Positions 9,572-18,556 of a stretch of 42,038 nt of DNA are shown here, piece after piece (the first letter of the stretch is position 1; each line of letters opens with the position of its first letter). A program made the position numbers and the translations under genes. Source of the stretch: Anaerolineae bacterium (GTDB taxonomy: Bacteria > Chloroflexota > Anaerolineae > UBA4142); NCBI GenBank assembly GCA_034435315.1, contig DAOTYB010000194.1, forward strand, positions 1 through 42,038, given 5' to 3'. The notes beneath the pieces are model-generated. The model did not search any database. It saw nothing but the letters and a program-made list of their open reading frames with translations, and was not told where the DNA came from.

Positions 9572-9600
9572 TTGCCATTGCAAGCGGGATGTGATTAAAT
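9572..9600 (+). promoter_or_regulatory. Candidate sigma70-type promoter of the Ubl-system operon
   Basis: TTGCCA, 17 nt spacer, TTAAAT, with TG one base upstream of the -10 (extended -10 like). Predicted by eye only. Confidence 0.35.
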
Positions 9601-9610
9601 GCGTCCAGAT

Positions 9611-9637
9611 TGGTATTCTGGTCAGACCAGAATACCA
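9611..9637. promoter_or_regulatory. Perfect 27-nt palindrome (13+1+13), candidate GntR/FadR-type operator
   Basis: TGGTATTCTGGTC A GACCAGAATACCA. The core CTGGTcaGACCAG resembles FadR-type operators (TGGT-N-ACCA class). Ends 14 nt upstream of the ATG of the GntR-wHTH::E1 gene. Confidence 0.6.
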
Positions 9638-9650
9638 CAGGAAAGATGCG

Positions 9651-11318
9651 ATGAGAATTGATCCTGTCGAAAAAAGTACGCTGGCACAATCTGTGGCAGA
9701 ACGCCTTTTGCGTTTGATTGCTGATGGGACTTGTAAGCCCGGCGAAAAAATGCCGTCCGAACGCGAGTTGATGGAACGCCTTCAGGTAGCGCGTTCCACC
9801 GTGCGTGAAGCACTGCAAGCGCTTGCGGCGTCTCACGTCGTCGAGATTCGTCCCGGCGTCGGTACGTTTGTGCGCGAAAATGCGCGCGATCTGATTCCCG
9901 TTGCACTCGAAAGTTTGCGTAACCCGCGCGCAGTTGCAGCATCACGGAGTACATCGGGCGATGGCTCGGAACGCGTACAGGGCGCGGGGGTGAGTCCTTT
10001 GCCGCCTCCACCAGACAAACCGTTGCACATTCCGAATCTCAAAAAAGATCGGCTGGGGACGTTCGAGTTTATTTCGTGGTGGGAACGCAGCAAAGTTCAA
10101 GCCGCGCGTGTGATGGTGGTAGGCGCGGGCGCACTCGGTAACGAGGTGTTAAAAAATCTTGCTTTGATGGGCGTGGGCAACCTGTTCATCGTGGACTTTG
10201 ATACCATCGAAGCCGCCAATCTGAGTCGCTCGGTATTGTTCCGCGCCGAAGACAATGGCAAGAAAAAAGCCGAGGTTGCCGCGCGCCGCGTCAAAGAACT
10301 GAATCCCGATGTGCATGTTCAATATTTTCATGGCGATGTGAATGTTGCACTGGGGCTGGGCATCTTTCGTCGAATGGATGTGATTATCGGATGTCTCGAT
10401 AATCGCGAAGCGCGCCTGTCTATCAATCGCTTTGCGTATCGGTTGAACAAACCGTGGGTGGATGGTGCAATTCAAGAACTCTTTGGCTTGATGCGCGTGT
10501 TCGTCCCCGGGGAAGGAGCGTGCTACGAATGCACACTCACTGAACAAGCGCGCCGCGAAATGTCGTTGCGATACTCGTGCCCCCTGCTGGCGCGGCAAAA
10601 TATCTTGCTGGGCAAAGTGCCGACCACGCCAACCATCTCGGCGATTATTGCGGGACTGCAATCGCAAGAGGCGTTGAAACTCATTCACGGTATGCCGGTG
10701 CAGGCAGGCTATGTGACGCACGTCAACGGTTTGATCAACGAGTTTCACACCACTGCCTACACGCCCGATGAAAATTGTGAGAGTCATTGGATTTACGGAG
10801 ACATTACCGAGTTGCCGAACATCAAAGCCGCGACGACAACAGCAGCGGAACTCTTGCGTATCGCGCGCGAACAACTGGGTCCCGACGCGCTGATTGAACT
10901 CGATCAGGAAATCGTGACCCATCTGGAATGTCATCGTTGCGAAACGCGTACCGCGGTGTACAAACCCATCTCGCAGGTAAGTTACAACGAGGGATTGTGT
11001 CCCGGCTGTGGCGAGTTGCGCGAGGTGCAGATGGCGCACGTCATCACCGGCGATGAGCCGTTTCTGCACCGGACCCTTTTGGCGCTGGGGATTCCGCCGC
11101 TCCACATCGTGCGTGTGCGTAACGAGCACGAGTATCGCTTTTTGGAATTGACCGGCGATCTAGCCGAAACGTTGCACTGGTCGCACTTTGAGGGCGGCGC
11201 GCGTTCAGCGCATGCCGCGCGAGTGCGCTTGCATCCACGTCCGCGCATCAAACTGGGTGAGGTGGTTCAGGTGAACGCGCCGGTCGAACCCAAGCGTCCA
11301 CGAATCGTCGTGCATTAA
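9651..11318 (+). CDS. GntR-family winged-HTH fused to an E1-like (ThiF/MoeB/UBA-type) adenylating enzyme
   Basis: N-terminus [64 protein letters not shown] is a GntR wHTH. A P/S-rich linker follows, then the Rossmann motif [41 protein letters not shown], plus CYEC, CHRC and CPGC zinc-type pairs. Start moved from 9564 to ATG 9651. Confidence 0.85.
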   Translation: [555 protein letters not shown]

Positions 11319-17414: not shown

Positions 17415-17479
17415 GCGTCTGGCGTATCGCAAACGCCATTCACTATACGCCATACGCTTTCTACTCAAGGGAGGTTAGA

Positions 17480-18511
17480 ATGTCGAACGTATTTGAACAG
17501 ATGCCCGATGTAGGCAAAAAGAAACCCACGAGTGCCGCCAAGACGCCCAGTCGCACACCGCTGGTGGTGGGAGCACTCGCCGTATTTTTAATGCTGTTGT
17601 TGTGTGCGTTGCTGGCTGGTGGCGGCTATTGGCTCTGGTCGTCTCAGCAGGGCAGCCCCGTCGCTCTATCTCCAACGCCCGGCGTCAAGTTCGCACAGCC
17701 GGTTATGCCTGTCGGAGGCCGCGTCCGCATCGCCTTTAGTGTCGAGCGCGGGGGGCGCCCTGAAGACAAGTTCGTGTGGATAATGAACGCCGATGGGAGT
17801 GATGCCAGGCAGGTGCTCAAGAATGCGTCTTCGCCCGCTCTTTCGCCGGACGGTTCGTTGATTGCCTACTATCACTGGAACGAGGGCATTCACGTGGCGA
17901 ATGTCAATGGGACCAACGCGCGCAAGATCGTGGGCGAAGCGCATGCCAAGTATCTCGCCTGGTCGAATGATGGCAAATGGATTGCCTTTTCCTCGCAACC
18001 GATTCTGGATCGCACGGTGCTGGTCAACATTGATGCGGTGCGCGTGGATGGTAGCGGGCGGCGTACCATCGTTTATGGCGGTACGCAACCGTCGTGGTCG
18101 CCGGACGACAAGTACATTGCGTTTGCTACTTGTCGCGGTTCCGATTGTGGCATCTACAAAGCCAGTTCGGCAGGCGGAGATGCCGGTACTCCCATCACTA
18201 AAGATTTGGGAACGAACCCCGCTTGGTCACCCACAGGCAATCAGATTCTATATCAGGCTGATGTGGACGGGGTCAAGCACTTGTTTGTTGTGAACGTGGA
18301 TGGTAGTGGCAAACGTCAACTCACGTGGGGTACTTCGCCGCGCGTGGGCGCGCAATGGTCGCCGGACGGAAGTGCCATCTACTATCGCGCGCTCGAAGAT
18401 GGAGTGTGGAGCATCTGGCGAATGAATGCAGATGGCTCGAACCCTGTCCGCATCGCTACCGATGTACCACCTGTTGATTGGGCGTACGAACGCCTGGCGC
18501 TGAGTCGCTAA
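17480..18511 (+). CDS. N-terminally anchored TolB-like beta-propeller protein (PD40/WD40-like repeats)
   Basis: GGGAGG SD upstream of ATG 17480. Short basic cytoplasmic tail, TM helix, and repeated SPDG / WSPD / DGS blades (ALSPDGSLIAY, AWSNDGKWIAF, SWSPDDKYIAF, AWSPTGNQILY, QWSPDGSAIYY). Confidence 0.85.
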   Translation: MSNVFEQMPDVGKKKPTSAAKTPSRTPLVVGALAVFLMLLLCALLAGGGYWLWSSQQGSPVALSPTPGVKFAQPVMPVGGRVRIAFSVERGGRPEDKFVWIMNADGSDARQVLKNASSPALSPDGSLIAYYHWNEGIHVANVNGTNARKIVGEAHAKYLAWSNDGKWIAFSSQPILDRTVLVNIDAVRVDGSGRRTIVYGGTQPSWSPDDKYIAFATCRGSDCGIYKASSAGGDAGTPITKDLGTNPAWSPTGNQILYQADVDGVKHLFVVNVDGSGKRQLTWGTSPRVGAQWSPDGSAIYYRALEDGVWSIWRMNADGSNPVRIATDVPPVDWAYERLALSR

Positions 18512-18517
18512 AAATCA

Positions 18518-18556
18518 AGACACCAGGTTTCCTCATTGGAGCCTGGTGTCTATTTT
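18518..18556 (+). terminator. Rho-independent terminator closing the nine-gene block
   Basis: agacaccagg ... cctggtgtct (10-bp stem) followed by atttt. Confidence 0.7.

Follow-up and report, generated by a model that had tools for sequence, protein, structure and literature searches.

A predicted membrane-associated ubiquitin-like conjugation operon with a putative GntR-type operator, conserved across Anaerolineae

Prokaryotic RING E3s encoded with E1, E2, JAB and ubiquitin-like protein (Ubl) genes were reportedly described by Burroughs, Iyer and Aravind in 2011, who are said to have proposed conjugation of YukD-like Ubls; their set is said to comprise a ThiF-type E1, a UBC-like E2 with an oxyanion-hole asparagine, a transmembrane (TM) RING protein, a JAB protein and a YukD-like Ubl. 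Pfam has a family, Prok-RING_1, for RING fingers that are associated with E1, E2, JAB and Ubl genes, and this family reportedly derives from that work. Kaur et al. 2020 (PMC7159879) described operons from deltaproteobacteria, actinobacteria and planctomycetes in which separate JAB, E1 and prokaryotic RING genes and a Ubl::E2 fusion occur with a vWA protein and a beta-propeller. They proposed that the JAB protein frees the Ubl from the fusion; their systems also need MoxR and an AAA+ protein of the double FtsH type, as well as a caspase-like effector and an EAD1 adaptor that is carried by the Ubl. Caldiarchaeum subterraneum and Asgard archaea have an operon of E1, E2, small RING and ubiquitin (Ub) genes with Rpn11 (Hennell James et al. 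2017, PMC5654768; Fuchs et al. 2018); the Caldiarchaeum Rpn11 processes pro-Ub, and the archaeal E2 auto-modifies a C-terminal lysine. Among bacteria, the Bil (BilABCD), type II CBASS Cap2/Cap3 and Bub sets of E1, E2, Ubl and JAB or deubiquitinase (DUB) genes conjugate a Ubl. RING-containing bacterial operons were still called uncharacterised as of 2023, and a broad survey found a complete ubiquitin-type toolkit in none of the bacterial genomes analysed. Here we analysed a 42,038-nt stretch of DNA from an Anaerolineae bacterium (contig DAOTYB010000194.1 of assembly GCA_034435315.1; the window), in which nine genes (g1–g9) probably form a self-contained, autoregulated, membrane-associated Ubl conjugation system of the Anaerolineae.

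The nine open reading frames (ORFs) span 9651–18511 on the plus strand, between an isocitrate dehydrogenase gene (7935–9233, minus strand) and a UPF0182 gene (18749–21496, minus strand). A first-pass annotation of the sequence had listed nine same-strand ORFs encoding an E1, a RING-like membrane protein, a Ubl::E2 fusion, a Ubl, two JAMM proteins, and FHA, vWA and PD40 proteins. All nine ORFs were present and Pfam reproduced every domain call. The eukaryote-like character ascribed to the set was also borne out, the closest solved relatives being UBA7/UBA1/SAE2, UBC E2s, Caldiarchaeum Rpn11/RPN11 and ubiquitin/Caldiarchaeum Ub. Relatives were collected by scanning one genome per species with g3; 142 genomes matched, and the best 80 of the 142 were fetched as loci, labelled here with L-numbers. 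Nearly all of these 80 are Anaerolineae, Anaerolineales or Chloroflexota metagenome-assembled genomes (MAGs), and E2 identity across the class is 65–94%. A seven-gene core (E1, RING, Ubl::E2, Ubl, JAB, TM-FHA and vWA) was colinear on one strand in essentially every sufficiently long locus, as judged by tblastn and ORF mapping. The FHA-fused JAB occurred only in L001–L011, L028, L034, L035 and L041, and the PD40 gene only in L001–L004 and L007–L010. Conservation of the neighbourhood in relatives had been chosen beforehand as a point on which the proposal could fail; the core proved colinear, and of the nine-gene unit first proposed seven genes stand as a conserved neighbourhood, while the other two, the second JAB and PD40, are confined to particular lineages. 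Across 53–81 orthologues, the catalytic and zinc-ligand residues were invariant.

The first gene, g1 (9651–11318, plus strand), encodes a GntR winged helix-turn-helix (HTH) domain followed by a ThiF/E1 domain, as indicated by Pfam, PDB matches and conservation. The winged HTH (aa 11–74; Pfam GntR, 75.4 bits) matched the DNA-binding domains of FadR, GntR and PdhR in the PDB. The adenylation domain (aa 145–377; Pfam ThiF, E = 3.8e-57) had its best PDB sequence matches in UBA7/UBA1/SAE2 (∼2e-28), with ThiF behind (2.5e-22), and matched MoeB too. In 68 orthologues GAGALG, NLSRS, CLDN and RYSC310P were invariant, as was a CxxC. Cys310 sits in RYSCP within a short crossover loop that lacks an inserted Cys domain, and this position suggests that it is the catalytic cysteine. 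The protein also has a C-terminal four-cysteine region, a conserved C-terminal domain of ∼80 aa and a basic tail (RVRL..RIKL..RIVVH). A profile search of PDB sequences with the last 130 structured residues, which sought an E2-recruiting ubiquitin-fold domain, returned no match. The GntR–E1 fusion was retained in 66 of 71 E1 orthologues. In one MAG, a single 943-aa ORF (L078:7146–9977) joins the E1 to the TM-RING protein, representing either a natural E1–E3 fusion or an assembly frameshift.

According to Pfam, PDB matches and an AlphaFold2 model, g3 (12212–13069, plus strand) consists of a YukD-type Ubl, a variable linker, a UBC-type E2 and a basic tail (RPERVKLK..KPKIKLK). Its Ubl domain (aa 1–88) ends in TADVTAG and matched Pfam YukD with an E-value of 4e-12, and the E2 half scored 38.8 bits with UQ_con (cut-off 27). 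The E2 core reads WHPNI...SVC196ID, and H185, P186, N187 and C196 were invariant in the orthologue alignment. A phmmer search of the PDB found 243 distinct chain sequences at E ≤ 1, the best 60 all being E2 enzymes; the best match (1.2e-9) was to eukaryotic UBC E2s, with HPN and the cysteine aligned. In a wider protein database g3 had 1851 matches, and the best 120 were all at least 70% identical and all carried YukD plus UQ_con. The model (mean predicted local distance difference test score, pLDDT, 70.9) contains a confident beta-grasp at residues 1–84, for which Foldseek returned ubiquitin, Caldiarchaeum Ub and the EccD Ubl domain of ESX-5, with a probability of 1.00 for ubiquitin and Caldiarchaeum Ub and target-normalised TM-scores of 0.67–0.8 against these two. 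The Ubl domain dominated the Foldseek search of g3, and no E2 entry was among the best 50 matches. The E2 half was modelled with the UBC order of helices and strands. Because its active-site loop was modelled poorly, the UBC fold rests on the sequence matches together with this secondary-structure order.

The candidate modifier is g4 (13116–13382, plus strand), a free YukD-type Ubl of 88 aa that ends in TADVTAG, with Gly as its last residue (Pfam YukD, E = 1.2e-10). It is acidic (14 Asp/Glu versus 8 Lys/Arg) and gave non-significant phmmer matches in the PDB, Caldiarchaeum Ub appearing at E ∼0.5. Over all 88 residues it is 81% identical to the g3 Ubl domain, and the two share the same TADVTAG ending. 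All of the free orthologues (72/72) end in [VI]TAG-stop, and the fused copies all keep [VI]TAG, followed by the variable linker. Within these 72 genomes, identity was 81% among free copies, 76% among fused copies and 73.5% between the free and fused copies of the same genome. Since the free and fused forms make up separate orthologous groups, the Ubl duplication is old and both copies are under selection; concerted evolution, with the fused copy as a mere precursor, was rejected on the same grounds.

Membership of the YukD family, to which Pfam assigned both copies, also invites a reading in which the Ubl is not conjugated but serves as a structural or assembly subunit, as YukD/EsaB do, and the E1- and E2-like proteins are non-conjugating or act in sulfur transfer. 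Such a role would agree with the report that B. subtilis YukD is unconjugated, with the EccD Ubl domain of ESX-5 in the Foldseek list and with the additional matches of the E1 domain to ThiF and MoeB. It would leave unexplained the exposed terminal Gly of 72/72 free Ubls and the invariance of the E2 HPN/Cys, the E1 Cys, the RING ligands and the JAMM sites, for which only catalysis accounts. The cluster also has no FtsK/EssC ATPase, WXG100, rhodanese or thiamine/molybdopterin genes, and we consider an unconjugated Ubl highly improbable. Specific sulfur-carrier and type VII secretion system (T7SS) assignments were rejected because the partner genes are absent; neither EssC/FtsK ATPase nor WXG100 genes were found in the cluster or among its neighbours.

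Two genes encode JAMM/MPN+ proteins, which would act as peptidases in the conjugation reading. The stand-alone protein g6 (14581–15231, plus strand; Pfam JAB) is universal in the system; it begins with LRVKL, has an acidic C-terminal tail and had its best PDB match in the Caldiarchaeum Rpn11-like protein 6fjv (2.6e-8), with RPN11 next. In g5 (13448–14566, plus strand), found in closer relatives only, a non-canonical FHA domain (aa ∼29–75; Pfam FHA, 29.8 bits) precedes the JAMM domain (Pfam JAB, 48.8 bits; E224, H289-x-H291, S299 and D302) and a basic tail, KPRVRVKL. The EVGG...HTHx7Sx2D signature is intact and conserved in both. One relative (L081:11253–11846; GCA_900174565.1) has the same cluster with an unfused E2 of 197 aa, which starts exactly after the linker, at the SPRxRRL helix. 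This unfused E2 and the conserved [VI]TAG junction fit a release of the fused Ubl by a JAMM peptidase.

The candidate E3 is g2 (11346–12197, plus strand), which on the evidence of Pfam, AlphaFold2 and hydropathy has 4–5 TM helices, a disordered Pro/Arg linker and a C-terminal RING-like finger (aa 237–283, nt 12054–12194) of a predicted binuclear zinc type. Pfam Prok-RING_1 scored 29.9 bits, above its cut-off of 29.1. Eight ligand positions (C240, C243, C258, C261, H265/H266, C269, C276 and H280) were invariant in 53–79 sequences. The model had a mean pLDDT of 86.3, with the finger at ∼91, and reproduced the 4–5 TM helices and the disordered linker; local Foldseek matches of the finger were to the RING-H2 protein EL5 (root-mean-square deviation 1.3 Å over 35 columns) and to PHD fingers, all at E > 1. 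There were 470 matches to g2 in the wider protein database, and JGI annotates homologues under the Prok-RING_1 name. Conservation and Pfam make the RING assignment well supported, though not structurally proven.

With integral membrane proteins as candidate E3 and as two universal partners, the acceptor of the Ubl might be an amino-lipid, an envelope precursor or some other membrane component that is not a protein, in the manner of Atg8–phosphatidylethanolamine, the RING and TM partners defining the site. Atg8 and Atg12 end in a single Gly. The Ubl described here does so too, and no protein target is evident. However, the HPN-Cys signature of the E2 is the canonical one of UBC enzymes that act on lysine, and the conserved Lys-rich tails of several operon proteins are obvious protein acceptors, so that a lipid-like substrate appears very unlikely.

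The two universal membrane partners are g7 and g8. In g7 (15228–16088, plus strand; Pfam FHA and Yop-YscD_cpl, hydropathy), a Gly-rich multi-TM domain is followed by a cytoplasmic C-terminal FHA domain. Alignment of this domain with GarA and Rv0020c revealed that, relative to GarA, GR is replaced by GS, SRRH by APQH and LNGT by GKGT, and the altered residues were invariant in 68 orthologues. The FHA domain of g5 has a similar signature (IGS...IAPHH). The FHA fold itself is present in g5 and g7, whereas the canonical phosphothreonine-binding Arg, Ser and Asn are missing from both. Because the phosphate-binding residues are replaced and the replacements are invariant, canonical phosphothreonine recognition by these domains is unlikely; the FHA label of the first-pass annotation holds for the domain and should not be read as phosphothreonine binding. 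In g8 (16200–17414, plus strand; Pfam VWA and VWA_2, hydropathy; NCBIfam TIGR03436, 117.7 bits), a signal or anchor sequence precedes an extracytoplasmic vWA domain, a C-terminal TM helix and a cytoplasmic tail. Its metal ion-dependent adhesion site (DRSGS, Thr, Asp) is intact and conserved. The lineage-specific g9 (17480–18511, plus strand) has an N-terminal TM anchor and an extracytoplasmic PD40/TolB-like beta-propeller (Pfam PD40, 82.6 bits); the TolB-like assignment by NCBIfam scored below the family cut-off. Hydropathy and the g2 model predict a topology with the RING and FHA domains in the cytoplasm and the vWA domain and PD40 propeller outside.

Several operon proteins share a strand-like motif of the form [KR]-hydrophobic-[KRH]-hydrophobic (R-I-K-L-K type), often in two copies. 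It lies in the basic C-terminal tails of the E1 (RVRL..RIKL..RIVVH), the E2 (RPERVKLK..KPKIKLK) and the FHA-JAB protein (KPRVRVKL), and recurs in the cytoplasmic tail of the vWA protein after its C-terminal TM helix (SRIKLTG..SRIKIKQ). Counted in the last 40 residues, the motif was present in 66/72 E1 (92%), 78/80 E2 (97%), 14/14 FHA-JAB (100%) and 60/65 vWA proteins (92%), compared with 9% of 353 background ORFs, and in none of the RING, short JAB and PD40 proteins. At the N-terminus of the short JAB lies a related but looser motif (MSRIKL, GIRLS and similar; M-LRVKL in the window), which follows the strict pattern in only 25/70. From these sequences we suggest that the motif is a docking element, which would gather the soluble enzymes and the vWA tail on a common membrane partner; this partner would most likely be the acidic Ubl, in an arrangement like that of a SUMO-interacting motif with charges reversed, or the non-canonical FHA domain of g7. 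A strict consensus for acceptor lysines lost weight as an explanation, since many copies read R-x-R without Lys, and a role for the motif in supplying acceptor lysines is possible.

Expression of the operon appears to be linked to the E1. A perfect 27-nt palindrome, TGGTATTCTGGTC-A-GACCAGAATACCA (9611–9637, no strand assigned), lies 13 nt before the E1 start codon, and its core, TGGTCAGACCA, occurs once in the 42-kb window with zero mismatches allowed. The T-GGT...ACC-A palindrome is the usual form of a GntR/FadR-type operator, and a GntR-type site needs a dimer, which an E1 homodimer would supply. The TGGTCWGACC core was found in 58 of 80 loci, nearly always as a single copy 20–45 nt upstream of the E1 start, and was kept even where the GntR domain is only 40–50% identical; most of the loci that lack it are truncated upstream. 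Both hallmarks of GntR autoregulation, a winged HTH and a palindromic GT-N-AC-type operator at its own promoter, are found in the sequence. From the conserved palindrome near the E1 start and the GntR fusion we infer that the operon is autoregulated by the GntR domain of its E1, a well-supported reading. The first-pass annotation had proposed a promoter and operator at 9572–9637, of which the operator half was retained. The other half, a weak candidate sigma-70-like promoter read from the sequence (TTGCCA-17 nt-TTAAAT; 9572–9600, plus strand), failed the scanner rules: the promoter scan did not report the pair, whose −10 element has no A at position 2. In other loci, TATAAT-like boxes lie within the left arm of the operator or just upstream of it.

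A complete Ubl conjugation cascade is well supported as a reading of these genes, and its steps can be proposed as follows. An E1 dimer would adenylate Gly88 of the Ubl with ATP, after which a thioester would form on Cys310. The Ubl would then be transferred to Cys196 of the E2, with the HPN asparagine as oxyanion hole, and the g2 RING, at the cytoplasmic face of the membrane, would position the E2∼Ubl so that lysines of membrane-proximal targets accept it. JAMM peptidases would strip the Ubl from targets and probably also cut the [VI]TAG junction of the Ubl::E2 fusion, yielding a second Ubl and free E2. The GntR domain would bind the palindrome upstream of its own gene and tie expression to the state or amount of the E1. 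Outside the membrane, the vWA protein (plus PD40) would act as a sensor that is coupled to cytoplasmic Ubl conjugation through motif docking.

Several observations weigh against this reading. Adenylation, thioesters and conjugates are inferred from sequence. The E2 active-site loop (residues 168–205) was modelled with pLDDT < 50, the Pfam call of the RING is marginal (29.9 versus 29.1 bits) and Foldseek searches with the full g2 model returned only local matches, all at E > 1. The Ubl ends in a single Gly rather than Gly-Gly, and its Pfam family includes a protein reported to be unconjugated, B. subtilis YukD. In the shared tail motif Lys is not strictly conserved, and in the g3 model the protein's tail is not confidently docked in cis. 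Finally, the characterised bacterial Ubl-conjugation systems (Bil, CBASS Cap2) all function in phage defence, and Kaur et al. 2020 (PMC7159879) read related Ubl::E2/RING systems as conflict systems.

These last two points bear on whether the operon itself is an anti-phage or conflict system, one that would respond to infection or damage by conjugating the Ubl to proteins of phage or host, as in Bil, type II CBASS and the FtsH/MoxR-vWA systems. Those bacterial E1/E2/Ubl/JAB operons that have been characterised serve in defence, and the same is predicted for uncharacterised ones; the nearest architecture on record (JAB, E1, RING, Ubl::E2, vWA plus beta-propeller) has been assigned to conflict systems, in which vWA and FHA domains are common. 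The genomic setting offers one further hint of this kind: a convergent lexA gene (LexA_DNA_bind plus Peptidase_S24) lies downstream in 13/61 loci, directly after the vWA gene in loci within L013–L082. Its adjacency, like that of rplJ/rplL directly upstream in 6–8 of 48 loci, is probably lineage synteny. The remaining neighbours were assorted housekeeping genes (tRNA synthetases, icd and similar), the flanks of the window itself were not conserved in relatives, and no conserved extra neighbour (kinase, phosphatase, MoxR, FtsH or effector) was found in 48–61 related loci. Nor did the operon or its surroundings contain a nuclease, caspase, pore, cyclase effector, MoxR or FtsH gene. PADLOC matched generic E1 and JAB models only, with no match for the E2, Ubl or RING proteins, and the RING, E2, Ubl and JAB proteins belonged to no NCBIfam family.

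The distribution of the cluster also differs from that of a defence island. It is colinear in at least 142 species of one class, with 65–94% E2 identity and housekeeping neighbours, unlike patchy, fast-evolving islands. No relatives were found on viral contigs (none among 2.9 million), and the sole plasmid match was a distant E2, with 30% identity, from a compact operon of another kind. The non-defence layout noted in the first-pass annotation is in line with these data, which make a defence role unlikely and regulation of envelope or membrane proteins plausible as the favoured function. The plasmid operon (L083:7257–10734) lies on the mobilizable plasmid pCRI9333.03 of the cyanobacterium Crinalium epipsammum (NC_019754.1, 38825–42302), adjoins a type IV coupling protein gene and has the order ThiF, 82-aa protein, 85-aa protein, E2 (30% identical to g3) and MPN, with no RING gene annotated; its 82-aa protein looks beta-grasp-like and does not end in Gly. 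A full cluster with an E2 81% identical to that of the window was also present in L009 (JBLMXX010000081.1), which is labelled Acidobacteriota; this label is most likely a binning error and not evidence of a second phylum.

Going beyond the conjugation reading, we tentatively suggest that the seven-gene unit might be a vertically inherited housekeeping signalling device of Anaerolineae, in which a vWA (plus PD40) receptor would signal through the motif tail and the FHA scaffold to a membrane RING E3 that tags membrane or envelope proteins. If so, the device would be a bacterial counterpart of membrane ubiquitylation of the MARCH type or of the endoplasmic reticulum-associated degradation (ERAD) type, and the R-hydrophobic-K-hydrophobic-K strand would represent a novel type of motif, one that interacts with the Ubl or FHA and brings E1, E2 and DUBs together on a single hub. 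No other bacterial system would then stand nearer to the ubiquitin cascade of archaea and eukaryotes, which would bear on the origin of that cascade. Complete E1-E2-RING-Ubl-DUB cascades are usually seen as an archaeal or eukaryotic invention; here a predicted one is fixed across a bacterial class. The operon is small enough for in vitro reconstitution, as done for Caldiarchaeum, and the operator, tail motif and degenerate FHA domains are concrete and cheap entry points to its regulation, assembly and target.

Further signals mark the boundaries and the interior of the operon. A Shine–Dalgarno-like sequence precedes each of the nine genes individually. The most likely start of g6 is GTG 14581, which lies behind a perfect AAGGAGG (14570–14576), so g6 begins 14 nt downstream of g5 and does not overlap it; the first-pass annotation was right about the nine ORFs and gave a 4-nt overlap here. 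For g9, ATG 17480 is the most likely start, which corrects the earlier one. Downstream of g9, a scan confirmed the terminator proposed at 18518–18556 as a strong intrinsic-terminator-like hairpin (18518–18561 with its tail, plus strand), comprising a 14-bp stem with 7 G-C pairs at 18518–18551 and a T-rich tail (ATTTTAT). The 111-nt gap between g7 and g8 contains a long imperfect hairpin with GCAATCG-type heptamers (16089–16178, plus strand; 34-nt arms, 82% complementary). This hairpin is lineage-specific, being absent from the closest relative, L001, where the gap is ∼4 nt, and could represent a repeat insertion or a site of internal processing or attenuation. GCAATCG-type heptamer repeats also occur at 3752–3770 of the window.

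A G/C-rich palindromic intergenic element with the core CCCCACGCCGCTCTGCRGCGTGGGGAGGGGG is present in three copies (9301–9367, 18609–18676 and 41716–41759), two of which bracket the operon. The pattern had 4 matches in the window against 0.08 expected, and by its sequence the element looks like a family of repetitive extragenic palindromic (REP)-like repeats. The wider window is rich in envelope-related genes: an ORF with a PrcB_C domain (24410–25036), LytR_cpsA_psr (21880–23259), a PMT_2 glycosyltransferase (3213–5576) and a DegT aminotransferase (1603–2784).

Compared with the operons reportedly described by Burroughs et al. 2011, the component set is the same, and g2 lies above the Prok-RING_1 cut-off. 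The first-pass annotation had matched this combination to no described system, which was wrong given the Prok-RING_1 family and the operons of Kaur et al. 2020. Of the 'FtsH ternary' vWA-MoxR system of the latter authors, the Ubl::E2, RING, E1, JAB and vWA part is found here, with a vWA protein that is extracytoplasmic and has a signal peptide and a C-terminal TM helix. MoxR AAA+, double FtsH AAA+ and EAD1/caspase genes were found neither in the nine genes, nor in the window flanks, nor among the commonest neighbours of 48–61 loci. The Bil, CBASS and Bub systems lack a RING E3 and occur in defence contexts, whereas the operon described here has housekeeping neighbours and class-wide conservation. 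The BilD model of PADLOC gave a weak generic E1 match to g1 (2.9e-8, aa 152–217), and the locus was not classed as Bil. With the T7SS proteins YukD/EsaB and the EccD Ubl it has the beta-grasp family PF08817 in common, but in the present system Gly is always the last residue of the Ubl, and E1, E2, RING and JAB genes lie to either side of its gene.

The closest experimentally proven system is the Caldiarchaeum operon. In both, five functions are combined in one cluster, and among solved structures the Caldiarchaeum JAB and Ub proteins come closest to g6 and to the Ubl model, respectively; g3 also has a Lys-rich C-terminal tail, and the archaeal E2 auto-modifies a C-terminal lysine. The two systems differ in that the tag here is YukD-type with one terminal Gly, whereas that of Caldiarchaeum is ubiquitin with Gly-Gly. 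Moreover, the system described here is bacterial, its RING is membrane-anchored and of the C4-H-C-C-H type, the E1 comes with GntR and the E2 with a Ubl, and the TM-FHA and vWA partners are obligatory. In the accessible literature, including that later than 2023, we found no experimental study of this system type and no mention of the operator, the shared tail motif or the degenerate FHA details. Together, these comparisons place the operon in a kind of system predicted earlier by comparative genomics, to which the operator, the tail motif and the degenerate FHA domains are added as new details.

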